Below are positions 3,501-62,904 of a DNA stretch of 64,000 bases, one piece after another. How positions within the stretch are numbered: position 1 is the first letter of the stretch; the number at the start of each line of letters is the position of its first letter. A model generated the notes under the pieces. The model did not search any database and was not told the origin of the DNA. It worked only from the letters and a program-made list of their open reading frames with translations. This stretch comes from Lama guanicoe (lineage: Eukaryota): assembly GCA_013239625.1 (NCBI GenBank), contig MU053588.1, positions 3,438,799-3,502,798 of the forward strand, read 5' to 3'. The translations under genes and the position numbers were made by a program.

Positions 3501-6500
3501 TACCCTCTTTCTAGAAACTTTTTGCTTTTAGGCTGCTGTGTGCTTCTGGTTTCCTCCCACCTCTTTCGATCCTCTGTTTCATTTCACTGTGGGTTCCTTT
3601 GGCCCTTGCTCTCTCTCACCTGGAATGCCTCACTCCACACCAGTGATTTTTCAGTGCTCACAGACTCAGTGCCCTCTTTTTATAACAAATATTTTGTAAC
3701 ATCTCTTTTCCACCCTAGTGAAACTCAAGGATAATGTATCTACCTACACACCTACCTACTGATTAAAATCAATATAATGCTCTAATTGCAATACAGAGGA
3801 GAAAGGGGGCAGAGACTGATGATAAAACAATAGGATAGTACCATGTAAACGTGTGGGCAGGACTGTGCTGGAGGACCGAATGCAGTGCCTACGGGTGATG
3901 GATACGACTGGAATTATGAGAAGTAAGACCATTTAGTAGAATTATGTCGACACCTGAGACTTGACACTTTGAAATAGCTGGCAAATAAGTGTATTTGTAC
4001 AAATACAAATCACCGCGAGGGTGATGATTTCCCAATGCAGCTGGTCTGAGTGTCTTCACTTGGTGACTCAAATACCACAAGCAGTGTTGCTGTCAGAGAC
4101 GCAATTTCCCAAAATGGTGAACGGTTCTTGGCAAAGTTTCAAACAAAACAACATCCAGTTGTTCCTCAATCTAAACAATAGGTGTATTTCTAGAAATTTT
4201 GGTTTCTATTATAGCCATGCAAAAAATACTTCGGTTTTTGGGGTGGGGAGGGTATGGCTCAGTGGTAGAGCACATGGTTAGCATGCACGAGGTCCTAGGT
4301 TCAATCCCCAGTACCTCCATTTAAACAAACAAACAAACAAAACTTTGGTTTTTATGTGTCAAGGAGTTAGACTAAGGTAATCAAATACCAGATTTTCCCT
4401 GCGTTCAGACTGGGTTGCATTAGTCTATACCTGCCCCCACCCACTGACACCAGATGACCTCAATCACTCTGGCCATCAGAGTGCCCCACACCTAACCAAG
4501 CACCTTCCTCCAGCACCTCCCACCCCTGGGACACTATCCACCCAGGGACCACCACTCTGTACACTCCAGAGCCATCTCGTCCACCTGGGCTTCCTTTGCT
4601 CTTCATAACTGACACTTCCCAAGTCTGCATCTCCATACCTCTCCGAGCTCTTGTCATTACTCCCAAATCAGACTCCCCACCTGTGTTCCCCTGCTCTGTG
4701 AGTGGCCCCATCTCCCCCACCAGCACCACCACCAGTCAGCCACACTGCGTCCTCAGGATCTAGGAGGTGCCTTGTGTGTGTCAGGCTCTGAATAATTTTG
4801 TCTTGAGTGAATGACAGCATTGACCTATTGGATGGGTTTGGAGAAATTCGGTTTCCAGAGAGACTATTTCAGACCCCGGGTCTTTGTGTGTGTTAGGTTT
4901 TGGTTTTCTTTTGCAGAAGGCATGTTATCCATCCCCTTATCTTCCACTCCACCCCCATCCCAGTCCCTAGCACAGCACTGTGCATACGTGCTCAGCAAAG
5001 GACAGTGGCTGTTTTCTTCATTATCTGCTGGAGGAGGAGGTGGTCTGGGAGGCCCACTGAGCATCTCCCCTGTCCTCAGGCCCCACAAATGTGTACATCT
5101 GCAAGGAGACTGGCCACTCTCACCTCACCTCACCAGGCGGGAGGACAGAGAGGGCCAGGGTAGCTGCCTTTGGGTCTTTGAGCCAGGCCAGTGGGTGCCT
5201 CTTCTCCCAAGTCAGTCCTGAGTCACCAAGACAAGAGCACACACGTGCACGGCACTTGCTCTGTGCCAGATGTAACTCACTCTTACGACAGCCCTGTGAA
5301 GAGGGGCCTACGATTATACTTAACCTCACAGGTGAATCCAAGGTCTCACAGCTAGCCAGTGATGGAGGCAGGATTTGGGGATTTTCCACAGACCTTTCTG
5401 TTATTGATTTCTACTTTATCTCCACTGTGGTCAGAGAACATTCTCTGTAGGATTTTAATCCTTTGCAATTTATTGAGACTTGTTTTATGGCTCAGCATAT
5501 GGTCTGTCCTGGTAAATGTGCTATATGTACTCTCACAGTGTGTATCCTGCTGTTGGTGGGTGCAGTGTCTATAAATGGCAATTAGGGCCAGTGGGTTATT
5601 CATGTCTTCTGTGTGCTTACTGACTTTCTGTCTACTTGTTCTATCAATTATTAAGAGAGGAGTGTTGAGATCTCTACCTGTAATTGTGGAGAAATTGTAT
5701 CTATTTCTCTTTTCAGTTCTGTCAGTTTGTGCTTCATGACTTTTGAAGCTCTGTAATTAGGTGCATAAATGTTTAGGATTGTTGCATCCTCTTGCTGAAC
5801 TGACGCCTTTGTTATTATATAACATTCCTCTTTGTTCCTGGTAAATTCCTCGTTCTGAGGTTACCTTTATTTGATATTCATGTAGCCACACTCGCTTTCT
5901 TATTCTTAGTGTTTGCATAGTCTATCTTTTTCCCATCCTTTCACTGTCAGCCTACCTGTATTGTTACATTTAAACTGGGTTTCTTATAGGCAGCATACAC
6001 TTAGGCCTCGGACCAGGGTTGGCAAACACTTTCAGTATTGGGCCAAATAGTAAATCTTTTAGGCTTTTCTGGACATACAGTATCTGTTGCAACTACTCAA
6101 CTCTGTAGTGCGAAAGCAGCCATGATTGAATGAGTGTGGCTGTGTTCCAATAAAACTTTATGGACCCTGACACTGAAATTTAAATTTTATGTGTCGTGTG
6201 TCATGAACTATTACTCTTCTTTCATCATTAGCCATTTAAAAATGTGAAAATCATTCTTAGCTTGTGGGCTGTGCAAAAAGACAGCAAGTCAGATTTGGCC
6301 TGTGGGCCATAGTTTGCCTACCCCTGGCTGAGACCATTTACCTATAATGTAATTATTGACGTGGTTAGGTTTAAATCTGCCAACTTGCTGTTTGTTTTTT
6401 ATTTGTCTCTTCTTTGTTCTTTTTTCCCTCTTTTCCTCCTTTCTTTCTGATTTATTGAGATTGTTAGGGTTCTGTTTTATGTCCACTATTGACTTATTAA

Positions 6501-23347: not shown

Positions 23348-38051
<14,704 letters not shown>

Positions 38052-42349: not shown

Positions 42350-44808
42350 GTGAGCAAGCCAGATCTAGCACCCACGACCGAGATATGGGAGTCTTGGGTC
42401 CCCGCCCCCTCCTCCCTGGGGTCCTAGGAATCTGGGCCTCCAGACACATGAGTCTGGGCCCTTATGCCCTCTTCGAGAACTCTGGAGTCTGGGCCCTCAG
42501 TCTCTTCCTCCCCTGGGATCCAGGAGTTTGGGGCCTTATCCCCCCAAGAACCCCGGAGTCCGGGCCCCCCTCGGTCCCCTCCTTGCGCGGGGTTCCGGGC
42601 TCCATCCCGTCTACCGCTGATCTGGCTCTGCACCCGCTAGGACCCTGCTGCCGAAACTGATTCCATCTGGCGCGGGCCGTGAGTGGCTAGAGCGGCGCCG
42701 TGCGACCATCCGGCCCTGGGGCTCGTTCGTGGACCAGCGGCGCTTCTCACGGCCCCGCAACCTGGGCGAGCTGTGCCAGCGCCTCGTACGCAATGTGGAG
42801 TACTACCAGAGCAACTACGTGTTCGTGTTCCTGGGCCTCATCCTGTACTGTGTGTGAGTGCGTCTCCAGCCCCCACCAGGCTGACCTGCCGGCACTGGCC
42901 GGCCGCGCCCTCAGCATCCTGGCCCTCCTCTCACTGGCCAGGCCCCGCCCCTATGAGAGAGCTCTGCGGCACTTTTTTACTGAAGAGCCGAGTCCCTACT
43001 CCCCCATAGCCGGGCCAGGATGAAGTGTGACCAGATGTGATCTAGCCTTGCCCGGCCCCAAGGATGTAGCCTGCTATCCACCGGTGTAGGTCGGGCCCCC
43101 GTGTCTGGCCCAGCCCCAGCAGCCTGACCGATGCCTCCCTGTCCTCCTCCAGGGTGACATCCCCCATGCTGCTGGTAGCTCTGGCTGTCTTCTTTGGCGC
43201 CTGTTACATCCTCTATCTGCGCACGTTGCAGTCCAAGTTTGTGCTGTTTGGTGAGAAATCCCCTGCCCAGACTCCTCAAATCCTGGTCTGTTGGAATGCA
43301 AGCCTTAGAGCCCAAACCTAATTCCTTTTGAACCCAAGTGTGCCCCAAGCCTAGATCTACACTAGATCCCTTAAAGTCTCAGACAACCTGATGCTCCCGC
43401 CCACTCTCAGCCTCCCAAGTTGCTATTCCCCAAGCCCAGAAGATACCCCAGAACCCACTCTCCGCTTAGCCCTGTCCCTTAAACCTTTCTTCCCTCTCCC
43501 TCCCTCACCTCTTGCCAAAAGCATCAGTTGCTGGTACCCACACTGGACACCAGGTGGCGACCTTACACTGGCCTAGTTCTGTCCTCTCCTTTCCTGCTTC
43601 CTGGGTTGGGAGTAGAAACATCATGGGACTTCTCAGAGGGGGAAACTGAGGCCTGTGTCTCATGTGGTCCCAGACTGGCACCAAGCACTATTAGGAAGAA
43701 AATGGAGCCTGAGTTTCCAACTAGGGGAGGCTGAAGGTTTGGAGTAGGGATAAGGGGGAGTTGGGATCAGACAAACAGGTGCACCTAAGACAGAATCCTT
43801 CAGAAGACTGCCAGTTATGTACATAACGGAGGTGGGCTGGGTGGAGGGGCGTGTTGGGCAAGCACAGGGCATGGAGTTTAAGCACAGCTTGGCTTCAGCC
43901 TCTGCTGCCACCATGGCATACAGACCCGCCCTTCCAGTCTGCCACAAGAAGCCAGATATCTATACAGCCGTCCCTCGCCTGTTCCAGGGTCCCTGGCAGA
44001 TACCAACATCTGAGGATGCTCAAGTCCCTTTTATAAAATAGTATAGTACAATGATCCATGGGTTTCCATCCATGGATACAGAGTATTATGTGAAATCATT
44101 CAGTTTCTTGGTCACCCACAAATCAAATCAAATTCTTGTGGAATAATATGCAGACTCAAAACACACATCTGCAGGTCAGACTTGGCCTCTGGGCCACCAG
44201 TTTGAGACTCCAGGTCTACGTGAGTGCAGGTTGGAGCTGGAGAGCGGTAATCGGGGGGGGAGAGGAGGGAGAGGGAGGCTGGGAACTTCCTAGCAGAAGT
44301 GGGGTTGAAGGGCAGAGGGTGAAGGGCCGAGGAAGGCATGCTGTATTCCAGGGGAGAGTGGGTGGGGCTGTGGGAGAAATGGGTGGGGCCAGGACTTGGA
44401 GGGCCTTGGGAAGAGTTTAGATCCTGAGGCTCTAGGAACTTGTGACACCAGATTGTTAGGGGACATCATGGGTTCCTCTGGAAGAAGGCATGAGTTTTGA
44501 AACAGCTGCCCTAATGCCATTCTGACCCCCGCCAGGCCGAGAGGTGACCCCAGCCCACCAGTATGCTCTGGCCGGGGCCGTCTCCTTTCCCTTCTTCTGG
44601 CTAGCTGGTGCCGGCTCCGCCGTCTTCTGGGTCCTAGGTGAGTACAGGGTCTGGGTAGAGCGGTGGGCATTGGGGGCCAGGAGAGGGGGCGAGGCCCTGA
44701 ACTGCCCGTTTTCCTGCAGGAGCCACACTCGTGGTCATCGGCTCCCACGCTGCCTTCCACCAGACAGAGGCCGTGGAGGGGGAGGAGCTGCAGATGGAAC
44801 CTGTGTGA
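42294..44808 (+). CDS. RABAC1: RABAC1 prenylated Rab acceptor 1 (PRA1), 185 aa; join(42294..42349,42641..42853,43153..43250,44536..44637,44720..44808)
   Basis: MATEKDQQKDAEAEGLSATTLLPKLIPSGAGREWLERRRATIRPW...RNVEYYQSNY...GSHAAFHQTEAVEGEELQMEPV*; 558 nt; all introns GT-AG. Confidence 0.97.
42641..42853 (+). CDS. RABAC1: RABAC1 exon 2
   Basis: ctag|G..GT|gtgagt; NVEYYQSNYVFVFLGLILYC. Confidence 0.95.
43153..43250 (+). CDS. RABAC1: RABAC1 exon 3
   Basis: VTSPMLLVALAVFFGACYILYLRTLQSKFVLF. Confidence 0.95.
43962..44090. mobile_element. Tigger/MER2-like fragment
   Basis: TACAGCCGTCCCTC..GATACCAACATCTGAGGATGCTCAAGTCCCT. Confidence 0.55.
44536..44637 (+). CDS. RABAC1: RABAC1 exon 4
   Basis: REVTPAHQYALAGAVSFPFFWLAGAGSAVFWVL. 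Confidence 0.95.
44720..44808 (+). CDS. RABAC1: RABAC1 exon 5
   Basis: ATLVVIGSHAAFHQTEAVEGEELQMEPV then TGA. Confidence 0.95.
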
Positions 44809-46768: not shown

Positions 46769-47521
46769 CTTTGATGTTGGGGAAACAGCAGTGGCACACG
46801 GAGGGGGCCCTGCCCTCTGGGAGCTCACATTCCAAGGGGGAGGCTCCAGACACACAGGCCAAACAACAAACCAAAAGGAAGCTCTCAGACAGTGATAAGC
46901 CTCTGAAGTCAACAAAACAGGCAACTGGCCCAGGCTAGAGAGTAGAGGAAGAGGGAGTGGAGCTCACTTAAGAGCGGTGGGGCAAGGCCTTGCTGGGCAG
47001 TGGGGTGGAGATTGCCCCTCTGAGGTCAGGGGGAAGAGTGTTCCAGCCAGAGGGAACTGCAAGTGTAAAGGCCCTGAGGTAGGACCACTCAGTGACAAGA
47101 CAGCGGTAAAGGGAGTGATGTAGGAGATGATGGTGAGGAGGATGCTGGGGGCCAGATGCAGGACCTGCAAGCCATGGAGAGGTCTTTGGATTTAGTTTAA
47201 GGTAATGTGGAACTATGGAAAGGTTTTGAGCAGGGGTGGGACAGGGTCAGGTGTGAACGTCAGAAGTATCCCTTTGGGGTCTTATGAGGATGGGCTGGAG
47301 GGAGTGGGACCAGGGAGGATGAACCAAGCTGGGGAAGATGAGGCAGGGACATGGAATGGAAAGGACAGACAGGGAAAGAAGGGAAGGAGGAGGGTTGGGG
47401 CTTGGTGACTGGCCTGCGTGGGACCTGAGTGGGAGGGAGCAATTAAGGGTAACCCCCAGGTTTCAGGCTTCTGTCAAGATGGGAAGACCAGGGGACCTGG
47501 GTGTCTTGAGTGGACACACTG

Positions 47522-47698
47522 TTCCCAGTCACCAGGGGTGCACTTCCAGTGGCTGCCACCAGAGGGAGGAAAAGTGCTTCCTCCAGACCTTCTCCAGGCG
47601 GCTTGAGGGTCCTAGTCCACCCTATTCCCAGTCACTACAGGTGCACTTTCAGTGGCTGCCACCAGAGGGCAGAAAAGGGCTACTTCCAGACCTTCTCT
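47522..47698 (+). promoter_or_regulatory. Direct repeat (103-bp period), each copy carrying a CTCF motif
   Basis: GTGCACTT(C/T)CAGTGGCTGCCACCAGAGGG(AG/CA)G; cores at 47556 and 47659. Confidence 0.75.
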
Positions 47699-50600
47699 GG
47701 GGAAGGAGCCAGAAATGGACTTGTCCTGAAGGAGGAGACCTGAGGTGCCTGAGGTTGAGAGTTGGGCACCTGAGTCTACTCAGAGGCCAGGGTCCCAATC
47801 CCAAGTTGAGGATGGCACAGGGCGTTTAGTTTGTTAATCTAGAGGCCAGCATTCCCAGGGGAGACTGCCCACAGGGGAGGATGGTCACTCCGTCCAGTTT
47901 CCATTGCCGGGCCTGGAGTGAAAGTGGTCCATCTGACTTGTTTGGAGATGGCTGAGGCCGGGGACCCAGGGTCCTGGGGCTGAGATCACTGAGGGAGGTG
48001 ATCAGCAGCCTGGGTTTGGGGGTTGGTGGTGGGAGGCTGAGACTCAGTCCAGAGGCCTAATCTGGAGGTGACGGACCACAGGTCCCTGATTCTGATGCTG
48101 AGCTACTGAGATGCTGAGACCCGAAGCTTCCATGGGGGTGGTCAGGACTGCGGATCCAGTTCCCCATCTATCCCTTCCTGAATGACCTTGGGGTTGAGAG
48201 GTTTGGTTTGGGCACAGAAACTAGGGGGCTTGGTGTCTCATCAAGGAGACAGAAACCAAAGGTCTGCTCGTCTATTTTGGTGACAGAGGCTGGGGGTCCA
48301 GCTGGCTGATTGAGAGTGACACGTTGGGGATCTGATTGTCAACTTCATGATTAAAAAGCCTGTGAGCCCAAGCCTGGGGTGACAGGGACAAGGGATCGGC
48401 GTGTCCAGTGTGGAGTGACAGGGCCAGGAAATGCCCACACCTCACTGGGGTGTCAGACTGTTGTGTTGTTTTGGGTGACAGCCTGAAGTCCAGTGTCTGG
48501 TTTGGGGTAACAGAAACTGAGGGTCTGTTATCAACTTTGAAGTCATGTTATCTAGCTTGAGGTGACAGACTGGGCTTCCCGATGGCACGGGGTATGCAGG
48601 GCCCTAGTGTGGGTTGACAAGGTAGGTATCCCCTTGTCTGGAGGCAACCTGATCGGGGTCTGGTTGTTTTCTTGAGGTAGCAGAGCAAGCAGCACTGTCC
48701 GGTCGGTGTCACAAAGCCTGCGGGTTCTGTTCCATTTGGGACACCAGAGATTGGGGGCAATCTCTCTGCCCGGTGTGAAGTGACAGCAACTAGGAGGCCA
48801 CATTTTTTAGTTTTGAGAATGTCTGCTTGTCTAGTTTGAGGTTAAAAACACTGGGTCTAGTTCTCAAATTTTAAGTGACAGATTGGAGACTCTTTCGTCT
48901 GGCTGGGAGTGACAGGGACTGGAGTTGCTGGAGGGGCCAGAGTCTGGGGTTCTTGTCAGGCTGGAGTGATAGGAGCTATTCCAGTCTGGCGTGACAGCCT
49001 GGGGGTCTGATTATCTAGTCTTCAGGTGACCAAGACTGAGCCCTGGGGCTCCCCTGTGGCTGTCAGAGTTGGGAGTCTGCTCTTTTTTGGGGTGATAGAA
49101 TGGCAGTCTAGTTGCTAGATTGAGACACCAGAACATTAAAGTTTGGGATGCCAGACTGCGGGTTCAGTTACTAGTTTGGAGCAACAGAAATTAGGGGTCT
49201 GATAGACCCCATTGGGGTGTCTAATAGTTGTAGTCCAGTTGTTCCTTTTGGCGTGCCAGGGACACAAGGCTGATCGTCTAGCTTGGGACCAAGAGACTGG
49301 TTTTCAGTTTAGGGTGATGACACTGGGATTCGGGGCTGGGGCTGAAGTCAAAGACATTGGGTGACCACTTGGCTGGTTTGAAGAAGCAGACACTACAGGT
49401 CCAGTTGCCTGGTCGGAGGGACAGACTGACCGGGCTCCTATTATTCGGTTTGGGAGGCAGAGAGCAGCGAAGCTGCTGTCATGAGATTTCAGGGACCATG
49501 GGGTTTCTTTGTCTAGTGCGCAGTGCCTAAGCCTGGGGGTCCAGATGTCCAGTTTGGGACGTCAGAAGTAGGAGGTTCATTTGTCTAGATTGAGGTGGCA
49601 GAGGTTTGAGGGTCCAGGACCTGGCTCGGGGTGACAGAGACTAGGAGGTTAGTTGTCTCGTTTGTGATGACAGAGACTAGGACCCGCGGTCCAGTGAGGG
49701 CTGCATGCCTGGGCTCTGGGTCCAGTTTAGGGTGACACAGAATGGCAGTTTGCTCTCCTAGTTGGGCACGAGTGGGACCAGGGGTCTGGTTGTCCAGTTT
49801 AGGACGACAGACTGGAGTTTGGTTGACAAGAGGAAGGCCACAGGGCTATAAGGCCAGGTCTCTAGTTTTGAGGTGACATTTTATATATCCAGGGGCTCAG
49901 TGTGGAGTGAGAGAGCCTACAGGTACCATTGTCTTATTTGAGGGGGAGAGAAACTGCGTCCCAGGGCATATTTGGGGTGTTAGGGACTGAAGGTTTGGTT
50001 ATATCCTTCTGTGGGGTAAAAAACAGGTCCCAGGATCCATTCAGTTGCCGGACTCTGGAGGTCTGCTTGCCTAGTTTTGCGGGACAGAGATTAGGGTTCC
50101 ATGCATATGTGGAGTGACAGGCTGGGACCTGGCTCCCCAGTGCTGAGTGTCAAATTGGGGTTGCCAAGGAGTATTTGAAGGTTTGGCTGTGGGTCTAGTT
50201 GTCTAGTTTTAGCGATCACAAGGCATGGTTATCTAGTTCCAGGGGACAGAGAGCATCGTCCCAGGGTGGATTTGCGGTGATAATAATGGGGGTCTGGTTC
50301 TCTAGTCTGTGGGGATGGAGACTGTGGCCCTGGGGTCTGGTTGTCCAGTTTGCTAGGATAGTGACTGGGATCTTGGAATATTTGGGGGGTGGCAGAGACT
50401 GAAGTCTGATTGTCTGGTTTCGTGGAACAGAGACTCAGGTCCCTGTGGTGACAGAGATTGTGGTCTGGTTCTAATTATGTGTAAAAGAGACTGAGGTCTC
50501 AGGGAGCATTCAGGGTGACAAAGTCTGGGATGTGGTCTTCTGTTTTGTGGGACTGAGACTGACAAGTCCCAGGGCGTTTAGGGGGTGGCAGACTGGTTAA

Positions 50601-52862
50601 GACCAGAAGTTGGTGGTGTAGTCTGGGTGGGGGCCCGGTCCTCAGTTTGCTAACTGGTGGAGATAGTTTGCATGCTGGTTGTCTGGTCTGATGTGGCAGA
50701 TCTTATTCATCCATTGTCATGTTTGGGGTAACAGAGACTGTAGGTCTAGTTGCCCAGAGGGGTGACAGGAGCTGTTGGTCTTGTTTTCTAATTTGGGGTG
50801 ATCATAGCTGGGTCTCTTGTCTAGTTTGGGTTGACAGTGATTGGGGTCCAGTTGTCCATTGGGGGAGACAGGTACTTGGATCAGCTGTCTAGCTTGAGGT
50901 GACGAGACCAGATGCCAAAGGTGACGCATTGGGGTGGGTACCGTCTCTCAGTTCCAGGTGACAGAGACCTCCTGTCCCCGAGTCTGGGACCAATTTGTGT
51001 GAACAATGGTTCTGTTCAGGGTGACAAGAACGGTGGGAGGCCAGCCGCCTACTTCAGGATGAAAGAGTTGGGGTTCTCATAATATATTTGGGGGTGACGG
51101 TATGGGGGTAACAAGTTGGGGGTTCTGGTGGATGGTTGGAAGGAATTGCAGTGGGGGAACCAGCTTGCCTCCTGTGGATGATGCAGACCGAGGGTACTCT
51201 GTTGGGGTGCAGAGCCTGGGTTCCTGGGGCCTTCCAAATGCCGAGTGTGAGTGCTGATGCCGTGCTCCTGGGGTGACTGAGTCAGGGGTCTCCTGCCCGC
51301 AGGCGTGGGGACCCCGGATAAGTGGATTTCTGAGGAAGTGTGGCCTGGGCTGTGGGGCCCTGCTTGGGGGTTACTGAAGCTGGAAGTCTGGACATGTGGA
51401 ACCGGGGAGGTCAGGGCCCCAGGGCCCAGGATCCACTTGAGAGGTGTTTGGGTTTGGGGATGTCAGTGCCACAAAGGGCCAATGACTTTCAAGGCTGGGA
51501 CATCTCTGCACATGGGTGTGGAGGTGATGGACACTGGGGCAGAGATACCCAGGGTGGGGAGGGCTGAGAACGGGGCTGGATGCTGGGCTGGCGGGGTCTC
51601 TGAGGCTGGGGCACAGTGGGCTGAGGGGCTTTCTGGCTTGAGGGGCTCAGCTGCCTTTATCAAGCACAGCAGGGTCCTGAGGGTCAAAGTCCAGTTTGAG
51701 GGCACATGGTGGTTATGGTGGTCGAGATGCATTGTTGCGGGTGATGAACACTGGGAACCCAGATGCCTACTTTGGAGAGATACTGAATTTGGGGTGACTG
51801 GAGTCCCTCTTGCCAAGTTCTGGTGCTTGTGGGCCCATGTTCCTGATCTGGGGTGCCTAAAACCAGGCTCTAGATCTGTGACAGTGTGGACTTCCATGGG
51901 GGCCGGAGGTGGCCACAGAGACTTGCCTTAGTGCTGACAGTCGGGGGCCTAGGTGGCCACACTGGGGGAGCCTCCTGTCAAGTCTGGGTGAGTCCGGAGA
52001 CCCAGCTTTCCAGCTCAGAGTGACTAGTCTGGGTTTGGTAGTGATCACATTGGCAGCCCAACTGTTCATTTTGGGGTCCTATTGATTACTTCAGGGCTGA
52101 CTGAAGTTTGGGGCTCACTGAGCCTGGGTGTTCCCCACCCTGCTTTTGGGGGTATCTGACACTGGGAGGCCAGATGCCGGGCTTGTGGGCAACTAGTGTG
52201 GGGTTCAGATGCCTCTTCTGAGAGTGACTTGCTGTGGCTTTATGACAGTGGGGCCCCACAAGTAAATTTAGAGGTGAGTGAGACTGTGGCCTGAGTTCTA
52301 ATTTGAGGACTAAGCCTGGGGCCCTAAATGCCAAATTGGAGGTGACTTACCCTGGTGTCCAGATAGGCGGTTCTGGGGCTGGGGCCCAGAGCCCTAGTTC
52401 GGGGGTAGCCAAGGCAAACTGCTCAGATGTCTATTCAGAGGGGTCCACCTGCTGAGGTTGAGATCACCAACTGGGTGCCAGTCTGGGATGACAGCTGGGG
52501 CCCAGATGTCAAATTTGGCTGTGACCCCTCCTCAGTTGCCTGCAATTGCCTGTATCATCAGATGCCTCCCGGGGTGGGGGGGTTCTCATTCTTTGTGTAT
52601 CAGAAGCCTAGTTTTGGAGGGCATTTGAGAGTGGGGAATAGCTGCTTAGTTTGGGGGTTACTGATTAAGACTTCCTAATACTTACATACAATTTGGGGTT
52701 AAGGGGTGACTGACAGGCAGGCTCAGATCGTGGCAGGCCTACCTGCCTAGTTTAAGGGTGGCTTAAAGGGGGGTTCTGGATACTTAGTTTGGGGTGAACT
52801 AACCTCAGAGCCCAGATGCTGAGTTAGGGTTTAGCAACTAGAGGAGCTCTAATGCTTATTTT

Positions 52863-52983
52863 ATTTTATTTTTAACTGAAGTACAGTCAGTTATACTGTG
52901 TCAATTTCTGGTGTACAGCACAATGTCCCAGTCATGCACATACATACGTATATTCATTTTCATATTCTTTTTCATTAAAGGTA
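52863..52983 (-). mobile_element. 5'-truncated L1 3' tail inserted in the array
   Basis: TSD TCTAATGCTTATTTTATTTT at 52848 and 52984; same family as 26826-26950. Confidence 0.8.
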
Positions 52984-53374
52984 TCTAATGCTTATTTTAT
53001 TTTGGGGGTGCTGATCCCAGGGGCCCAGCTGTCTCTTTTTGAGATGTCTCAATGTCAGGTGTCTGTTGAGGCTGTGGTGATGAAGAGGCTGAGGTTACTG
53101 CCTGTGGGTGGTCTCACTGCTCTTTTTCATGGTCATCCCAGCTGTGACTCCACAAACACGTTTCGGGGCTGAGTGAGCCTTGGGATCTAGTCAATAAATC
53201 TAGGGGTGGCCGTGAGTCCCTGATGCCCCAGTCTGTGGTGGCTACTTGGGCTGAGATCCAGAAGTTTGGTCTGGGGAATAGTGGGCTGGTTTGCGGCACC
53301 TGACTATGGGGGTCCATATCCCCAGTTTGGGGGGGTCACTGAGTTTAGGATACAGCGGCTTGATTTTGGGGAGT

Positions 53375-53798
53375 TGAATTAGTGTCCTGTGGCTAGTAAT
53401 AAACCAAGTGGCTTAAAACAGCAGAAATTCATTCTCTCACAGTTCTGGAGGCCAGAAGTCCAAAATCAAGGTGTCCGCAGGGCCACACTCCCTCCAAAGA
53501 TTCTGGGGGCGGATCCTTCCTCGCCTCTTCCAGCCTCTGGTGGCTGGCAGCCCTCCTGCCTCCCTCTGTCTTCCCATGGCCTCCTCCTCTGTGTGTCTCA
53601 TCTTCTTTCCTGCCTCTCATAAGGACATCAACATCATCACTGGATTCAGGGCGCCCCCAGGTGACACAGGGTGGTCTCATCTGGAGATCCCCCACTTCGT
53701 GGCATCTGCAAAGACTCTTTACCCGATAACATCACATTAGCAGGTTCCAGGGTTAGGACATGGATATATCTTTTGGGGGGCCACCACAACCCACTGCA
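53375..53798 (-). mobile_element. MaLR solo LTR (MLT1C-like) inserted in the array
   Basis: TG...CA ends; GTGGCTTAAAACAGCAGAAATTCATTCTCTCACAGTTCTGGAGGCCAGAAGTCC. Confidence 0.85.
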
Positions 53799-55149
53799 AG
53801 GGTTTTTGAGGCAGGCAACTTAAATTCTGTGTTTGAGGCCTCTAATTATTTAAATGCCCGTGTTTACTTTAGGAGGACTGACCTTGAAGGTCAGCTCTCC
53901 ATGCCTGATTTGGGGGTTCTTGACTTGATTTGGCTACTTTTAGGGTAACAGCCTGAGAGATACTAATGGTTAGTGTCGAGGTGACTGAAGTTTGGGAATC
54001 AGAGGTGTAGTCTGGGGATCACGGCTTCAGGGTCAGAGTCCTATCTTTGGGGCTGTGTGGGGTGGGAGGCCAGCTGCCTGGGTCATGGGCTAACTTCCCG
54101 AGGCGCTCCTCACTCTTATGAGGGGAGCTGACGGGGGAGCTCAGATGTGCATTTTAAGGGCAGCTGATGAGGGGTTCCAGATGCCAAGTGGGGAAGCTGT
54201 TAAAGCTGATTGTTCAAATGCCTAGGTTAGGGTTACCGGTGAGTAGGTCCAGATGCAAAGTTTGGGGGTGGCAGTAGAGAACCAGATGTCTACCGTCAGG
54301 GTGACTTGCTGGCGGTGGGGAAGTTCCTGTTTTAGTGGAAACAATCTGGGCAGCCAGCTGTCTAGTCTGGGGGAGACTTAAGCTGGGTGGGGCCCAGATC
54401 CCAAGTTTGGGTTGATTGAGTCTGGGGATCCAGATGTCAGGATCAGAGTTGCTTAGTTTAGGGGTGACTGAGTTTCCGTCCTAGTTTGTATTGAGAATGG
54501 GGGTCATGCCCTGAGTGTGCTGACAGCAGCTGGGGGACCATTTGTCTAGACAACAGGTGACTTATCTCAAGGTCCTGATGTTTGTTTGGGGGCCAGTGAG
54601 GAAAGTTAGGTTCAGGTATAACAACTTCAGGGCCTCTGATGCCTAATTTTGGGGTGACTGACTCTGGGGGAATCCATGCCTATTTTAGGGGGAGCCTGTA
54701 GTTACTGACTTATTTTGGGGTGACTGATCTAAGGCCCATCTTCCTTATCAGTGTCTTGGGCTGGAGGTTTGGGGTGAATGGAGCCCCAAATCCTCATTTT
54801 GGGATGTCTGCGGCTGGGCTGTGGGTACTATCCTTGGCGTTTCTGAGTCTGGGTAACTTTATATGGCCTGGGGTGGGGTCAAGGTATCAGGCTGATACTA
54901 GGGGTCTCCAGTCTGCTTGCAGGTTTCTGAGAGACGGTGGGGACTCACATGCCTGGTTTGAGGGTTTCTAGGCGCCTCCTTTGGGGGAATCTGAGACTGG
55001 GGACAGAAGTGCTAAAGACCTGTCCCCAGGTCTGGGGACCCCAGCCCCAGTGCTACCCCCAAGGCCGGGCCTCTCCTGTGGATCTTCGAGGGGGTGTGGC
55101 AATCCATTTCTGGAGTGACTGATCTGGGGGTCACACGCCTGTCATACGT

Positions 55150-56200
55150 AGTTCTGGAGGGCACCGAGGGGGCCAGGGCGGGCGGGAGTCGGGGCGCTGC
55201 GGTGCAGAGCCGGCCTGCGCCCCCGGGGCTGGCTGCGGCGCGGGGTTCCCGCGGGAAGCAGAGCGCGGCGGGGCAGCCGGCGGCGGGAGGGCGAGCGCCG
55301 GAGTGACAGGAGAGGAAGAAAAATGGGCCGAGAAATCAGAGTGGACGCGCGGGGAGCGCGAGGCCGGGAGCGGGCGGCGGCAGCGGGCGATGGGTGGGGG
55401 CGCGCCTCTGCCTCGGGGGACGCGCCCGTAGGCCTTCCCTGGGCCCCCGCCCTGGAGGCCGACCCCTCCCCTAATTCCAGCCCCGCGCCCCCCCACTACG
55501 TTCCCATCCCTCCCGCGTTCCAAGTCCCCTCTCGCGTTTTATGTGCCCCTCCCGAGTTCTTCCTCCCCCCGGGGAGTTCTATTTACTTTCTCCACGTCCT
55601 GACCCCTCCGCACAGCGAGCTGCTCCCCCCTCCGCCTGCTTTCTATCTCAGTCGCCCACGTTCTGAACTCTGCCTCTGCTGCCTAACCCCCTTTCCCTCC
55701 GCGTCCTGCAACCCCTCCTCCTTTTCTAATTCTGTCCCCGCACTTCAGCTCCCTCTTTCTTCCATCCCACCCCCATATTCTCCCCCCAACCCCGCCCCAT
55801 CCCTTCCAAAGGTTTGAAGCGGAAATGGNNNNNNNNNNNNNNNNNNNNNNNNNNNNNNNNNNNNNNNNNNNNNNNNNNNNNNNNNNNNNNNNNNNNNNNN
55901 NNNNNNNNNNNNNNNNNNNNNNNNNNNNNNNNNNNNNNNNNNNNNNNNNNNNNNNNNNNNNNNNNNNNNNNNNNNNNNNNNNNNNNNNNNNNNCGGGCCT
56001 CCCCCTCGCCCGGCCCGGCCTCCCCCCGCCCCCGCCGCCCGGACACCTGATGAAGCCGTCAGCCGGGCGGGAGGGGCGGGAGGCCGACCGAGAAGGCCCT
56101 GGCAGAGACCGAACGAGACGGCCAGACGGAGACGCCGAGATGACGAAGGGAAAGTTCTGGGGACGCGGAGTCAGGGACCGTGGGAGGGAGTTGAGGGAAG
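55150..56200. promoter_or_regulatory. CpG island (promoter-like), partly in a gap
   Basis: Dense CpG and GC boxes; no recognisable CDS. Confidence 0.75.
55829..55993. other. Assembly gap (165 N)
   Basis: Run of n. Confidence 1.
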
Positions 56201-56489
56201 GGTCTGACTAGCAGCCAAAGGAGCCCCCCAATAGCGAATCGATCCTTAATTCTCTGCCCGAGAGACTGGGAAGGGAGTGTGGGGGGGGGTCCCTGCCAAG
56301 GCTGGAGGAGTCAAGGCCTTCAGAGGTTTGAGGGGGAAAAGAAAGTTCCGGGTGGAGGGGGTCCGGAAACCTGGATCTGGGAGGGAGGTCGACTCGGCTC
56401 GGAACTCGGGGTCCGAGAAGGCCAGGAGCCCGGACTCCTGGGCCCTAGGCTGGGAGCTTGTCATGGGGGCGGTGGGTGCTGGGTTGGGA

Positions 56490-56680
56490 GGCCCCTGATT
56501 GATTTCTGTTTACCGGCTGTCCCCGGCGGGCGGAAGAGCGAATCGCGCCCCATCCATCAACAGGCTCGCAGCCTCCCTAATAAAAACATTTTACTCCTAA
56601 ATGATCTCGAACTAATTAACTCAAAGTGTTAATTAAAGTTTGCACAGACAGCATTGTCATCAGGGAGGGCGGTGGATCCA
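56490..56680. promoter_or_regulatory. Putative conserved non-coding enhancer
   Basis: TGATTGAT, ATCCATCA, two TAATTA, TGTCA. Confidence 0.6.
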
Positions 56681-56783
56681 TCTTCCTGAGAGAGAGACAG
56701 GGTTGGGGGGAGGATGTGGAGAGGAAGGCAGAGCTCCCCATCCCCCCCCTCACTGATCCCAGTCCGCTGCTGGCGAGGGGTGG

Positions 56784-57132: not shown

Positions 57133-59229
57133 GGGGTGGGGTGGGGGTGGGGTGGGGGCGGGCAATTCTCCTCACAGCCTCCCCTAGCTTTTCCCTTTGC
57201 ATCTCTGTCTCTGAGTTTTTCTCTGTTGCTCCTTTTACCTGCCTGTGTCTCTTCCATCTCTGTCACTGTGTCAGTCTCTGTCTCAGAGTTTCTGCATCTG
57301 TCTCTGTCTCTTACGATCTCTTGTGCCAGGAGGCAGTTTCCCAACATTGCTCCCACCTCCCATTAATGGGATGCCTTTATTTGTGTGTCGGTGTGCATCT
57401 TGGAGTTTTGTGTGCCGACACGTGTGTGTCAGAATGTGTATGTGGACATGTGTGCCAGAGTTTGTGTGAATGTGTGTTTGAGTCCAGGGGTAAGTGTTGG
57501 ACACCTGATTGTTGGGCTTTGTGTGTGGACTCGTGTGTCCGGGCTTGCACGTGCACAGGTATTCGTGAGCCCAGCAGTATGTGGGTCGGCATGTGAGTGT
57601 CTCCATGTGTGTGATCGGTGCTGACAGGAGGGCTGCGGGACTCTAGCATGGTGTCCCTGAGACAGTGAGGACCTCTGCGGAGATCTCTGGGGCCAGGGCC
57701 AGGGCCAGGGTTCCCTTCCTATCTCCCTCAGGCACAGGCGGGTGGGAGCAGGCCTGCAGGTCCACTAGGTAAGTGAGTGACCAGGCGTGAACTCAACTGT
57801 GAACTCAGGTGAACTCGTGCACACGAGTGTGTGCAGCCGCCCCCTCTGTCCCTGGACAGGGCCTCCTCCTCCCCAGCCCCGCTCTCCTCTTCCCCCTCTT
57901 CCACAGCCGACAGCCAGCCAGGCAAGGGAACTGAGGCCAGGACAGGCCACCAGGCCATGGGCATCCGTGGGGTGGCTGGCTGGGCGGCCCCGATGTGAGC
58001 TCATACATCAGGGCTGACAGGCTCCGAAAGCCCCGGAATTAAAACCTAAATCGAATATTGATCACCCGCTCCGGCCGTGGCGCCCACTGCAGCCCCCCCA
58101 GCTCCCTCACGCTCGCTCCCTGCTCCCGGGCGTCACCGTCCCCGCTGTCCTGTCTTTCCCTCTGTCTTTCTTGCCTCCTCTCTCCCCTGCTTCTCCCCAC
58201 CCTGGCCCTGACTGTTCTGGTGATTCGTCTCCAACCCCAGCAGATGCCCTCTCAGCTAGAGACAGAGAAAGGAAGCCCCAGAGATTGAAAGAGAGAGAGA
58301 GAGACACAGGGTCACAGACACCCAGGGATGCACAAAACAGATCCAGACAGGAAAAGTTCAACACAGACCCGCAGACAGACCCAGAGCAAGCAACAGAGAG
58401 ACACAAACCCAGGCAGACAGACAGACACAGGCACACAGGCTCCCAGAAATGCACACAGGAAGTCACATATAGTCACATCCTGAAAGTCACAGAGACACAC
58501 ACACAATTACTATACACAAGAGGCACGTGGAGAAAGTTACACTCAGACACCCACAGGCAGACAGACAGACACAGGCCCAGGAGTTACAGCCATACACACA
58601 GGATCACATAGGCATGGGGGAGGTGACACACAGAGACAGGTACAGTCACACAGCAGTTACAGCAACTCTGGCAGAGTGAGACAGAGACAGAAAGTACCAT
58701 TATCCCTGCAAGGAAGACAGACCCACAGGCTGAACTCCAGAGTGACAGAAAGCATACACACCTTCCCTGTTCCCCCCACTTCCCCACTCATCCTGACCTA
58801 CCGCCACCTCCCACTGACTTCCCCTGTCCCACCCCATGCCACCTCTGCTGCTGGATCCAGAAACCAGAAAGGCTTCTGCACAGGAGGAGGCCCTCAGACC
58901 TCATCCCTGCCGCCCTAGACCCACTGAGTAGCCCCCTCCACACCCCAAGGTCCTGGGCTGGGCCAGGAAGGGAGCTGGAGAGGTAGACCCCAGAGGGGCT
59001 CCCTAGGAGAAGGGCAGGGTCAAGGTCTACTGTCCCCGCTGATCCAGGGATCTGGGGTCCTGTTCTCTGGGACCACCTGTGGGATGGAGGCCAGACAGTG
59101 GGAAGAACTTCCCTGGGCCAGGAGGGCTGGGGTCCTACGGAGTGGGCAGGGCACGGCCCCCGCCCCCACCCCCACCCCATGGCTTCCAGGCTTGGGGCGG
59201 GCGGCGGTGGAGGCGGGCGGTGGCGGCTG

Positions 59230-59380
59230 CCGGGGAGAAGATGAATCTTTCATGAGTGATTTGCGGCCGCCTCTTCTCGTCCCGTGTTGTTTAATGTTTC
59301 AATTTGGGCGAAAGCAAAACATTCAATCAGGCGGATTAAGTGCGTAATGCGTCTCATCGCTCAATCTGTCGCCTCCGCCG
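59230..59380. promoter_or_regulatory. Putative conserved non-coding enhancer
   Basis: AT-rich, CpG-retaining block with GGATTA, TAAT, TGTTT. Confidence 0.6.
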
Positions 59381-61604
59381 GGCAGCCCGCCGGGTGGGGG
59401 GGTATTAGGAGGGGGGTGGCGGGCAGAGACCCCGACCAGGGGAGCCCTGTCCCCAGCGCCACTCCAAAGCTGTGCCTTGGGAAGTCCCTCAGCCTGGAAC
59501 CTCTGCCAGGCCAGAGTCTCCCCCAGTCCTGGGTTCAGCCTCCCGCACACCTACTGCTTTCTGCTCCGACTCTGGGTGTCCGTTTGGCTTTTGGGGCCCA
59601 GGCCTCTCTGTACCCCTCTGCCCACCTGTCTTTCTCTGTCTACCTCTTTCTTATCTTTCTGAGTGTGTCTGACTGTTGTCCATCTGTCCGTCCACGAGAC
59701 ATGTCCATCTGTTTGTCCTTTGCTCTATGTTCCCCCCTACTTCCTTCATCTCACTGTGTCCACCTGACTTCTCTCTGCCTGCTCCCTGGGTTTTTTCTTC
59801 TTCTTTACATCTCCCTTCATCTCTCTTCTTTAGATCTATTTGCCGTCCCACTGCCATGCTGTCCTTCTGTCCACGTGGCTCCTGTCTCTCATGCTATCTG
59901 TATCTGAGTCTTCCCACCAGCCTCTCTCTGTCCAACGGCAGTCTCTCTGTCACCCTTACTCTGTGTCCACGCTCTGTGGGCAGACCCCCATTGTCCCCCA
60001 TCTTTCCCAATCCCTCTCTAATTCAGCCCCTGTGTCCATGTCCTCTCTCTCCCCCTCTCTCTTTCAACCAGGATCTCAGTCCTCTGCCAGATCCTCGTCC
60101 CTTTATCTGCCTATTTCACTGTCCTCTATTCATCTCTCTTCCTGTCTGTGTCCACCTGTTTCTCTGCCCAAATCTCTCAGTCTCTGTTTCCATTGGGGTC
60201 TGTCCTTCTGCCTTCCCTTCCCGGGGTTCCTTGACCGTCAGCTCCCAGTCCCTTGGCTGGACCAATACTCATGTCCACTAGGGGGCAGCAGGTACAGGCT
60301 TTTCTGGTGGGGAGCTTCCCAGCCAGTCCCACTGCCTGTCTGCAGACCATCTGGTTCAGGAGTATCCAAGCCAACCAGCCCCCTCCTCCCTCAGACCCAG
60401 AGTGCAGCCCCTCAACCTCCTCCTCCCTCAGACCTGGGAGCTGGGGTCCCTAGTCACCTTCTCTCTCAGAACCCAGGGATCCTATCCTCCAGCCCCCTCT
60501 TTCCTCAATTTCAAGCAGCCTGTGACCTGCTCAGGGATAAATGGAGATTTCAGCTGGGGGACTGACAGGCACTAACCAGAAATGTTGTCACCACTGCCTG
60601 CTGCTGAGACCCATGGGACTGCAAGGCCAGGGACCCACAGCGTGTGCAGGCACAGGGACAGGGACACACACAGATGGATTCCGGGAAACACACAAGTAAT
60701 GGGATTTCATCATAACACGCAAGGGCACACAGAGACCCCTGCCCCAGGCACACCTCGGGAGCCCAGGGTCAGACCCCTTGCCTCCCAGAGAAGCTCACAA
60801 ACACACAACACACACACTCACACGACATCTCAACCAGCCCTGTAGTTTGGACTATGCCACACAAATAAGTACACACACACACACACACACACTCCCCCCT
60901 GCTTCAGTGACTTTGGGGGACAGTACTGGCAGAGCAGGAGGCTCTCCCCAGACGCCATCTCTCTGTGCGTACTCGGGCAGGGACCCTGCTCAGCCTGTTG
61001 CCCCTCCCCCTCCCCCTCTGCAGCCTCTCTCCCCACTCCTCCTCTCTGCCCCCCACCCCTCCTCTCTCCTTTCCTTTTTCCCTCCTCTCTGTTGCTCACA
61101 CTCCCCTCAGTCTCTCTCCCCAGATCCTTAAGTTTCTCCTCTCCTCTCACTTTCAGTATCTATTCCGTCTGTCTGTCTCTGTCAGTTTCTCCTGCCTCTT
61201 TCTCCATCTTTCTTTCTTTGAATTCGTCTTTGTCCATTTCTTTGTACCTCTGTGGCAAGTCTCTGACATCTGGGTTTCTCTCTCAGAGACGCTCTCAATT
61301 TGTCTGTCTTGATTTCTTATCCCCCCCATCCTGTCTCTTTATCTCTGAGTCTCTTGGAATATCTCTCTCTCTGTCTCTGTCTCCCTCTCTGTAACTCCAG
61401 GCTTTGCAGTCTCTGTGTCTCTCTGTGTTTCCGTGTCTCTGCAGATCTCTGTCTCCCCCCGCCCCCCCCCGCCCCACAGTCTCTCTCACTGTCCCTCTCT
61501 ATGTCTCTCTGTCTCTGTCTCTCTGTCCATCCATCTCTCTCTCCTCCCAGCCCCTCCCTCCCTCCCCCTCTCTCCCTCTCTGTCTCACTCTTCGCCTCTC
61601 TCTT

Positions 61605-61930
61605 TTCTCTCTCAAGTGTTTTCAATTTTATTCTGAGTGGAATTAACTACCCCTGATGTCAAATTGCCGCCGAAATCGATAATAATATCTTTACAAAAGA
61701 GGATATTCTTCTCTCGGAGAACGGCCTCTGAAAAATGGAAAATTTAGTCGAAATTGATTCATTACTTGACACTTTATAGAACGGCTGCGTATTGATCGCA
61801 CCTGTCATGTCCCATCTCCCCTAATCGAAGCTGAAGGCCGGCTCCGATGCCTGCTATTTTTCATAATTCCACCGCAGCCGACAGCTCCACAAACACCGCC
61901 GCTCTCCCGGCCTCCGCCTCCCCGCTCTGG
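61605..61930. promoter_or_regulatory. Putative ultraconserved-type non-coding element
   Basis: ~300-bp high-complexity AT-rich block with many CpGs and a sharp left border against CT repeats. Confidence 0.65.
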
Positions 61931-62904
61931 CCGCCGCCGCGCGCGCCCTCGGCCTGGCCCCGGCCTCGCGGGCCGCGCCTGCACGGCCGTCCCACCGGTG
62001 TCCATCTGTCCGCCAGCTCCCTGCATGTCCTCTGTCCGTCCTCCCCTGACACGTGGCCAGTCTCCCCCGCCGTCTGCCTGTCCTCCCCACCCCAGCCCTA
62101 AGTCTGTCCGTCCTTTTCCTGGGACCCCTCCCCCCATCTGTCCACCAGTCTTCTCAACACTCCGCCTTTGTCCGTCTGTCTGACTCCCACCCCACCCCCA
62201 ACACAGGCTAATGCCCTGGCTGGCTGCCTCACGGGTCTTCCCGACGGCCTGTGTGGCTGTCTGTCTGTCCTTCCTGTCATCCCCTGCCTGCATCCTTCCG
62301 CCACCTTCCAGGGGTTACGGGGGAGGGGTGGGGGAGGGGTGGGATGCGATTTGCTCCCCATCCCCCAGCAGACCTGACTCCCCAGGCTCTGGATTCTCTT
62401 CGTGTTCCCCCACGCCCTGGGTGCGGCCTGGGCCAGTTCCAGCCCTGCTCCCCCTGCCACCTTCCTAGGAACTCAGGGCTGCCTGTCCTCCTCCCTGAAC
62501 CCCTCTTAACTGCTTCTCCCCTTCTAGCCTCCCTGCTCCCCTTAACGGCCTCCCCTTCCCTCCCTTCTACCCCACCCTCCCCTCCCTCCCTTCCTAATCC
62601 TCCCTGTGCCAAGCTCTGCCCTCAGGGGGGATCCAGAGGTGAATCAGACACAGGCCTTGCCCTCAGGAGACTTGAGTCAGCCAGGGACCCCCGGGGTGGG
62701 AGTGGGGGTGGCACACTGTGTCAGAAGAAGTTCAGAGCGCCTAGGGGGTAGGGTGGGGGGATGTCAATCAGTGCTGAGAATCAGAGTCTAATCTGCAGTA
62801 GTGTACACAGCAGGGTACTTTAGCCAGGTGGTTAGGAACACAGACAGCCCCCTTCCCCCCAGTTCACCCTCCTCCCGCCCGGCCAGGCTGCCTTGGCCCG
62901 CTTC

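Follow-up and report, generated by a model that had tools for sequence, protein, structure and literature searches.

The G/T-rich tract at 47926-55132 of the window, the 64,000-nucleotide stretch of Lama guanicoe DNA analysed here, is a 7-kb head-to-tail tandem array of a 36-bp unit that occurs on the + strand only. It is probably an old, single-locus minisatellite that is eroding neutrally, rather than a working element. The array and its surroundings comprise the following features.

42696-43282, + strand: two exons of the PRA1 family, belonging to a RABAC1-type gene
44942, 45111 and 45448: candidate poly(A) signals of the RABAC1-type gene
47510-47716, + strand: tandemly duplicated segment of about 100 bp, both copies carrying a CTCF-like core
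47926-51100, + strand: left block of the array, with units of the ...GTCTGGTTGTCTAGTTTGGGGTGACAGAGACTG type (n = 79; 0.69 identity to their own consensus), the best-kept part
49950-50560, + strand: stretch in which two unit variants alternate, with a weak dimeric period of about 70-72 bp
51350-55132, + strand: right block of the array, with units of the ...CCAGATGCCTAGTTTGGGGTGACTGAG.CTG type (n = 65; 0.66 identity to their own consensus)
52868-52983, unstranded: young 116-bp retroposon fragment within the array, with a perfect target-site duplication of 20 bp on its two sides (52848-52867 and 52984-53003)
53375-53798, + strand: old solo LTR with TG...CA ends, a dispersed element lying in the right block
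55150-56780, unstranded: CpG island of about 1.5 kb (GC 0.61-0.73, CpG o/e 0.7-0.9), interrupted by a run of N

Detection of the array rests on a wraparound profile trained by expectation-maximisation (EM), started from the consensus of the preliminary description and used with an entry penalty of 25 bits. The profile scores the array at 1189-1194 bits with 5155 matched bases, skipping the 116-bp retroposon fragment. In the controls, for which the profile was started from a consensus drawn from the real array, the score is 0 bits in all 12 dinucleotide shuffles and in all 10 other stretches of the window, on both strands. The tandem array with a unit of about 35 bp that had been described earlier is therefore real (1194 bits versus 0 in every shuffle and control), and its period is 36 bp. 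Scanning both strands of the full 64 kb with the fixed profile returns 24 segments (5244 nt), every one of them within 47926-55132 on the + strand and none inside the solo LTR or the young insert; the left edge, previously placed at 48190, thus moves to near 47926. To the right of the CpG island, no inverted copy of the unit family is found: with the penalty at 25 bits, the score of the minus strand is 0, and weak 15-bit matches on this strand are no denser there than elsewhere. With a single unit as query, nhmmer gives 28-31 matches at E ≤ 1, which lie without exception on the + strand and in 48214-54549. Of the simpler checks suggested beforehand, TRF sees only 2.3 copies of a 33-bp unit (50759-50837). 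Plain autocorrelation does peak at lag 36 (z 6.3), followed by lags 35 (z 4.7) and 72 (z 4.4), but it is not decisive and is weak taken alone because control stretches give similar z values at other lags.

The array contains 144 recognisable units (at least 24 of 36 columns matched) and 152 anchor positions, counts which, like the unit identities given below, lean towards the model because the alignment is fitted to the profile. The spacing between units has its mode at 36, with most values at 33-38. In total, the array holds about 150-190 units, or some 185 unit-equivalents by length, so that the earlier estimate of 150-200 units was a fair one. Its consensus, GGGGTCCAGTTGTCTAGTTTGGGGTGACAGAGACTG, departs at 2 of 36 positions from the one first proposed. 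The zone at 51.1-52.0 kb is the most decayed of the array. The dimeric period of the alternating-variant stretch is based on the unit table, the peak at lag 72 and slightly higher identity at even separations.

The array is heavily decayed. The units have a mean identity of 0.66 to the consensus (about 34% diverged), and the mean pairwise identity is 0.51 for neighbours, 0.50 at a separation of 30 units and 0.47 at 110 units. Neighbouring units are thus no more alike than distant ones, and there has therefore been no recent homogenisation. Since the turnover expected of a minisatellite is not seen in the comparison of neighbours with units 30 apart, we call the array a fossil. At columns 7-8 of the unit, the 144 units carry CA in 54 cases, TG in 31, TA in 11 and CG in none, a pattern that is the signature of a methylated ancestral CpG which has fully decayed.

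The solo LTR gives a relative date. At least 3689 candidate copies of its family are present in the genome, and the LTR itself is 74-81% identical to 11 near-full-length copies. All four of the longer alignments stop at 53798 and one begins at 53375, while three of the five bases of a candidate target-site duplication match in a by-eye reading. The LTR reported previously at this position is thus indeed a dispersed element with TG...CA ends, which we take to be a member of MLT1/MaLR. Because units of the same subtype flank it on both sides, the array is older than the LTR. The great age proposed earlier is in agreement with this order of events, the array predating an element whose copies are only 74-81% identical.

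The preliminary description had regarded the kept period as unusual for neutral DNA. The indel load of the array amounts to 0.133 per substitution and 0.045 per site relative to the consensus, compared with 0.168 per substitution and 0.038 per site for LTR pairs, the latter counted over two lineages together. We simulated a perfect array decaying neutrally at the indel-to-substitution ratio of the LTR, with d = 0.27-0.35 substitutions per site. The simulated arrays score 1076-2714 bits (observed 1189-1194), with a matched fraction of 0.71-0.89 (observed 0.78), a share of 36-bp spacings of 0.20-0.35 (observed 0.26) and a spacing SD of 2.7-3.6 (observed 3.1). Period retention is therefore not unusual, as a neutrally decayed array reproduces both the score and the period spread, and the real array carries an indel load per site at least as high as that of the LTR. 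The function inferred earlier from this feature finds no support, given the mutual unit identity of about 50%, the lost CpG and the neutral-like indel load. Conservation is nearly even along the unit, with a per-column SD of 0.068 against 0.041-0.063 in the simulations; this column spread sits at the upper edge of the simulated values. The 6-mers of the TTTGGGGTGAC core occur at 1.3-1.8 times the average frequency of the unit's 6-mers. The array may be under mild or structural constraint acting on its G-skew, length or G-run spacing, constraint being judged here within one genome.

The base composition of the + strand (A 0.20, C 0.20, G 0.33, T 0.27) corresponds to a GC skew of +0.25 and an AT skew of -0.16, which bears out the G/T skew noted at the outset. 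The CpG o/e of the array is 0.20. Runs of at least three G reach 34.7 per kb, compared with about 21 per kb over the window's first 40 kb. The 7.2-kb array contains no canonical G4 motif, and six when loops of up to 12 nt are admitted; a G-quadruplex array was dropped as a candidate for lack of canonical motifs. The longest stop-free frames have 216 codons on the + strand and 154 on the - strand. None of the 30 open frames that reach 70 aa has a Pfam match, and no Rfam family is found in the array. Three sequencing runs labelled as RNA share 5-10% of the words sampled from the stretch, a measure of word sharing only and not evidence of transcription.

The array starts about 2.5-3 kb downstream of the PRA1 (RABAC1) gene and its candidate poly(A) signals, on the same strand. 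The ARHGEF1-type gene is on the minus strand and convergent with the RABAC1-type gene; human RABAC1 and ARHGEF1 presumably lie at 19q13.2. At its other end, the last unit abuts the CpG island, in which no protein or RNA family was found. The island at 55150 was described as having no gene, and its GC and CpG values together with this negative search are in line with that description. The co-oriented G-skew begins inside RABAC1 and reaches the CpG island between the two convergent genes, a suggestive position. Upstream of the array, the CTCF-like core at 47659-47673 differs from CCASYAGRKGGCRSY at one position, and its counterpart near 47556 at two in a by-eye reading. CTCF-like motifs in the window number 4 versus 1.5 expected, which is within chance, as 11 of 100 shuffles reach 4. 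The flank at 47300-47925, searched as a possible transposon, is unique, with no other copy in the genome. A literature search yielded no publication on a tandem repeat at the RABAC1-ARHGEF1 locus.

The strand asymmetry of the array could be read as that of a G-skewed termination buffer, in which RABAC1 read-through RNA would form R-loops and slow the polymerase before the CpG-island cluster and the convergent ARHGEF1. The G-rich strand would then be the non-template strand, and the G-skew would be kept while the unit sequence would not. We consider this reading unlikely. It draws on a GC skew of +0.15 to +0.40 that runs continuously over about 43.6-55.2 kb on the RABAC1 sense strand, co-oriented with the upstream PRA1 gene at and after its 3' end, on the raised density of G-runs and on the mirroring C-skew (-0.33) of 59.6-62.8 kb, towards the ARHGEF1-type gene of the minus strand. 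In the available text of Ginno et al. (2013, PMC3787257), co-oriented terminal GC skew is described at nearly 2000 human genes, more so in gene-dense regions, and terminal-skew R-loops are reported, also at convergent gene ends. The likeness to these zones lies in the co-oriented G-skew past a gene end among dense convergent genes. However, the tract here is 7 kb long, far longer than the gene-end peaks of the same text, and begins 2.5-3 kb past the candidate poly(A) signals, when the skew peaks start within about 3 kb around the gene end (PMC3787257). It is also CpG-depleted (o/e 0.20), whereas terminal skew is tied there to partial protection from methylation (PMC3787257). Moreover, canonical G4 motifs are absent at a G content of 33%, and the skew, which stems from a single repeated unit, is fully accounted for by the founding unit's composition. 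Rather improbable, too, is an extended version in which an array as old as placental mammals would have been retained for its strand asymmetry. It would form a 7-kb G-skewed, R-loop-prone buffer stopping RABAC1 read-through before the orphan CpG islands and constrained-looking elements, and the C-skew on the ARHGEF1 side would mirror it, the paired zones insulating both genes. If the buffer reading were true, the locus would provide a clean natural case in which to ask whether extended G-skewed sequence separating convergent genes is under selection as a termination or R-loop buffer.

Readings in which the units themselves matter fare less well. By analogy with XIST and FIRRE, the array could be the body of a repeat-built lncRNA transcribed leftward from the CpG island on the minus strand, the units of the C/A-rich RNA serving as multivalent binding sites; we hold this to be quite improbable. 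The last unit does abut a 1.5-kb CpG island without a protein or RNA family, as in the XIST repeats and the FIRRE RRD, which are also tandem arrays beside a CpG island without a coding gene. In addition, minus-strand poly(A) hexamers occur only at the young insert (52860, 52865 and 52996), so that leftward transcription would run for about 2 kb before reaching one. Known scaffold repeats, however, keep their units alike, and those of the array are only about 50% identical to each other, decaying like neutral DNA as the simulation reproduces it. The minus-strand splice-donor consensus CTYACCT has no match in the array, and retroelements are tolerated within it. A periodic DNA-binding platform, with a TALE/MEIS-type, SMAD-type or KRAB zinc-finger protein reading part of the unit, appears very improbable from the motif counts. 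The array holds the words GGTGAC, TGACAG, GTCTAG and TTTGGGG at densities about 9-27 times those of the remaining window sequence, solely on the + strand, and no part of the unit is kept better than the TTTGGGGTGAC core, but this enrichment follows from the repetition of a unit that contains the words. TGACAG and GTCTAG, singled out previously as possible binding words, number 16 and 11 in the left block, where the unit's 6-mers average 10.8 (SD 3.8); both are within 1.4 SD of this mean and, being simply parts of the unit, are kept no better than its other 6-mers. Any given 5- or 6-mer is kept in only about a quarter to a third of the units, as neutral decay predicts. We give almost no credence to the array being the wreck of a coding tandem repeat with 12 codons per unit, from a lost gene driven by the CpG island. 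The unit length is divisible by 3, a by-eye reading of the consensus leaves two of its three minus-strand frames open, and open frames of 70-154 codons occur commonly on the minus strand of the array, but such frames are expected by chance on a C/A-rich strand. A coding repeat was rejected on the unit lengths and the lack of Pfam matches (0/30): exactly 36 bp is found in 35 of 144 units, and 33, 36 or 39 bp in 55 of 144, near the one third given by chance and thus without bias to multiples of three.

At the scale of the genome, the array unit is confined to a single locus in 2 Gb. A 1-kb piece of the array matches only itself, and a 20-mer of the consensus, with up to two mismatches allowed, has 26 matches compared with 23 for the reversed control. 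None of the 20 loci inspected among the 24 other 20-mer match loci contains an array, in a search whose sensitivity is low for decayed arrays. The position between the PRA1/RABAC1-type and ARHGEF1-type genes, which we take to be at 19q13.2 in human, would fit another classification under the same mechanism, that of a local, decayed representative of the MSR1 family of minisatellites, which we find doubtful. MSR1 is presented in the available text of its descriptions as a minisatellite of 36-38 bp, densest on 19q13, with mammalian age and locus-specific conservation (PMC6112826, PMC4725990). The 36-bp unit falls inside this range (PMC6112826), and the likeness extends to mammalian age and probably to the chromosomal neighbourhood. 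MSR1 differs, however, in forming dispersed short clusters (PMC6112826, PMC4725990), when the array here occupies one locus over 7 kb and the searches above find no dispersal of its unit, within their low sensitivity for decayed arrays. The sites predicted for MSR1 (SP1, RREB1 and PLAG1) in the same available text also suggest a unit richer in C/G.

The fossil minisatellite remains the best explanation of the array. Its founding expansion would have occurred by replication slippage or unequal exchange before the old LTR landed. Turnover probably ended tens of millions of years ago, and the array would have eroded neutrally since. The G/T skew, the G-runs and the TGACAG and GTCTAG words would then be a legacy of the founding unit and not maintained features. 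Today, the array probably has no sequence-specific job, providing at most a passive G-skew downstream of RABAC1. It tolerates insertions, as seen with the solo LTR and the 116-bp retroposon piece. Like classical G-rich minisatellites (VNTRs), it is non-coding and confined to one locus, has a unit tens of bases long and combines strong purine/pyrimidine strand asymmetry with G-runs in a GC-rich, gene-dense region, and its head-to-tail units fall within 10-100 bp. Unlike these minisatellites, it has no sign of turnover or ongoing homogenisation, is about 34% diverged and has retroelements inside.

Read in this way, the array is an ordinary relic, and the useful result is the calibration that it offers: a 36-bp period is still detectable after about 0.3 substitutions per site at normal indel rates. 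A kept period is no evidence of function by itself, because averaging over some 190 units keeps the period detectable.

The preliminary description had proposed a ~35-bp tandem array in the RABAC1-ARHGEF1 interval, and a dedicated profile both confirms and sharpens it. General repeat detection is nearly blind to the array: TRF reports only 50759-50837 (period 33, 2.3 copies, 75% matches), and the peaks of the autocorrelation (lag 36, z 6.3; lag 35, z 4.7; lag 72, z 4.4) are equalled at other lags in control stretches of the window. In contrast, a wraparound profile with 36 columns, a background state and a 25-bit entry penalty, EM-trained from the earlier by-eye consensus (itself derived from the real array), gives the array 1194 bits over 5155 matched bases, and a score of 0 in 12 of 12 dinucleotide shuffles and in 10 of 10 further pieces of 7.2 kb from the window, on both strands. 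With the profile fixed, both strands of the 64 kb yield 24 segments totalling 5244 nt; every one lies on the + strand inside 47926-55132, and none falls in either insertion or beyond these two limits. A one-unit nhmmer model returns 28-31 hits at E<=1, all + and all inside 48214-54549. Inside the array, words of the unit such as GGTGAC, TTTGGGG and GTCTAG reach about 8-27 times the density seen outside, and the GGTGAC-type anchor occurs nearly exclusively on the + strand, whose composition is A 0.20, C 0.20, G 0.33 and T 0.27 (GC skew +0.25, AT skew -0.16).

Since the RABAC1-type exons are on the + strand and the ARHGEF1-type exons on the minus strand, the array lies between convergent genes, as had been assumed. 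The human RABAC1/ARHGEF1 locus presumably maps to 19q13.2; our literature search found nothing on a tandem repeat at this locus. The main features are:

42696-42851 and 43142-43282, + strand: exons of a RABAC1-type gene of the PRA1 family
44942, 45111 and 45448: candidate poly(A) signals
47510-47716: about 100 bp duplicated in tandem (77 of 109 columns identical) with a CTCF-like core per copy, both +
array start to about 51.1 kb: left block, TGACAG and GTCTGGTTGTC unit variants
right block of the array: TGACTG and CCAGATGCC unit variants
52868-52983: young retroposon fragment of 116 bp with a T-rich left end and a perfect 20-bp target-site duplication (span 52848-53003)
53375-53798: LTR with TG...CA ends
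55091-55126: last unit, adjoining the CpG island
about 55.15-56.8 kb: CpG island (GC 0.61-0.73, CpG o/e 0.7-0.9)
59600-62800: C/T-rich low-complexity tract on the ARHGEF1 side (GC skew -0.33, AT skew -0.29) with many CTCTGTCTC-type runs
31.5-34.4 kb past the window's right end, minus strand: RGS-like domain exons, as in ARHGEF1

The unit consensus is GGGGTCCAGTTGTCTAGTTTGGGGTGACAGAGACTG, with which the by-eye version agrees at 34 of 36 positions. In 144 units at least 24 of the 36 columns match, anchors were located at 152 positions, and the array length minus the two insertions could hold about 185 units. Spacing is most often 36 (35 cases), the majority of the remainder falling at 33-38, and a weak period of about 72 bp arises because two unit variants alternate at about 49.95-50.56 kb. 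The CpG island expected at the array's end touches the last unit. At its edge, 55127-55170 still looks unit-like and carries CpGs (ACG, CGT) where other units have TG/CA, suggesting that the unmethylated shore of the island protected them.

The LTR is present there as a single copy, and the units previously noticed on both sides of it are of the right-block type; the array is therefore older than the insertion, which indirectly supports the old age first proposed. One inter-copy alignment starts at 53375 and 4 of 4 longer-flank alignments stop at 53798, marking its ends. The family, which we take to be MLT1/MaLR, active before the radiation, is dispersed (at least 3689 first-look candidates, 40 of them scored). 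Against 11 near-full-length copies picked from those scored, identity is 74-81% and pooled mismatches 22.7%, or about 0.13-0.14 substitutions per site per copy after Jukes-Cantor correction; at a typical mammalian neutral rate, this divergence would place the LTR at several tens of millions of years. The retroposon fragment entered the old array recently.

Searches of the genome (2.05 Gb, 55,231 contigs) point to a single locus. A 1-kb array piece matches only itself, and a consensus 20-mer with up to 2 mismatches has 26 hits, 2 of them in the array, versus 23 for the reversed control. No array was found in the 3 kb fetched around 20 of the 24 other hits, four on one contig being omitted (profile scores <=2.1 bits, against 180-773 bits for 3-kb array pieces).

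Mean unit identity to the consensus is 0.66, a value that, like every identity taken from the fitted alignment, is biased towards the model. Units are nearly equally similar as neighbours (0.51), at 30 units (0.50) and at 110 units (0.47), so homogenisation has not acted on them recently. Columns 7-8 of the 144 units read CA in 54, TG in 31, TA in 11 and CG in 0, the trace of mutational decay at a methylated CpG; array CpG o/e is 0.20. Relative to the consensus, the array has 0.34 substitutions/site and 0.045 indel events/site (0.133 events per substitution), and LTR pairs, two lineages summed, have 0.227 and 0.038 (0.168 events per substitution). We simulated neutral decay of a perfect 190-unit array, taking the indel ratio and the lengths of gaps from the LTR, in three replicates per level. 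At d = 0.27-0.35 substitutions/site, the score is 1076-2714 (observed 1189), the matched fraction 0.71-0.89 (0.78), the share of spacings equal to 36 0.20-0.35 (0.26), their SD 2.7-3.6 (3.1) and the share within +/-1 0.44-0.56 (0.53). The observed identity falls slightly under the simulated 0.71-0.80, as would follow from founding units that were not identical at the start, there being two subtypes. The period had been thought unusually well kept for neutral DNA; averaging over about 190 units, rather than any protection, is what keeps it detectable. Taken together, the array is probably a neutrally decaying, single-locus fossil minisatellite.

The argument for function, with the array as the body of a repeat-built lncRNA or as a DNA-binding platform, is not supported: no defining feature of either reading could be shown, and the units are not kept alike. 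TGACAG and GTCTAG are indeed present in the left block (16 and 11 times), both counts lying within 1.4 SD of the mean for the 6-mers of the unit (10.8, SD 3.8). Best kept within the unit is TTTGGGGTGAC (left block 14-19, right block 11-24), and column conservation, with five subtype columns excluded, has an SD of 0.068 versus a simulated 0.041-0.063, at the upper edge; together these leave room for a weak effect without demonstrating one. The array contains no canonical G4 motif (6 with loops up to 12 nt), no Rfam family, no Pfam family among 30 open frames (70 aa or longer) and no triplet bias in unit lengths.

On the left, the duplication with two CTCF-like cores lies about 210 bp ahead of the first recognisable unit, and only one core is within one mismatch of CCASYAGRKGGCRSY. 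The whole window holds 4 such matches versus 1.5 expected, a number reached by 11 of 100 shuffles; a further perfect match lies at 60275-60289 (+). The flank 47300-47925 is unique in the genome. On the right, N runs of 165 and 349 bases within 55.8-57.2 kb break the CpG-island cluster, so that the island centre, where GC skew changes sign, is unreadable. Four AT-rich blocks in or beside the cluster (56540-56660, 58020-58060, 59240-59370 and 61620-61870) retain numerous CpGs as well as words resembling TAAT/ATCGAT (CpG o/e 1.25 in 61601-62000) and, judged by sequence, look like non-coding elements under strong constraint; 61610-61880 occurs only once in the genome. The 67 open frames of 55-64 kb contain no Pfam family, and no Rfam family was found there. 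Elsewhere, in the left part of the window, four Rfam tRNA-family matches (40-47 bits; 4248-4319, 26590-26655, 32885-32957 and 34668-34739) probably represent SINEs derived from tRNA, not tRNA genes.

By the size of its unit, its tandem arrangement and its lack of coding content, the array qualifies as a minisatellite, but it shows no ongoing turnover, hence the name fossil minisatellite. According to passages of PMC6112826 and PMC4725990, MSR1 is a 36-38-bp minisatellite of mammalian age, densest on human 19q13 and conserved in a locus-specific manner. The array resembles it in unit length and probable neighbourhood, as compared by these descriptions rather than by unit sequence, but differs in that its unit is not dispersed in the genome (1-kb piece, 20-mer and 20 fetched loci).

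A minority reading is that the G-skew itself matters and that the array may serve as a co-oriented terminal-skew or R-loop zone after RABAC1. On the sense strand of RABAC1, GC skew stays positive from about 43.6 kb across the array up to 55.2 kb, and the C-skewed tract at 59600-62800 is G-rich when read in the sense direction of the ARHGEF1-type gene, which lies on the minus strand. That tract, which we presume may be MSR1-like, has a TRF match of period 36 at 61373-61457 (2.4 copies) and no match to the array's profile; purine-rich mirror tracts lie at 58270-58760. Together with these skews, the basis of the reading is Ginno et al. (2013; PMC3787257), who describe terminal co-oriented GC skew, accompanied by R-loops, at nearly 2000 human genes, with enrichment among closely packed genes, convergent pairs included. 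However, the array starts 2.5-3 kb beyond the candidate poly(A) signals, is CpG-depleted, and owes its skew to one repeated unit. As a fossil minisatellite, the array would be of low interest, unless the G-skew itself matters.
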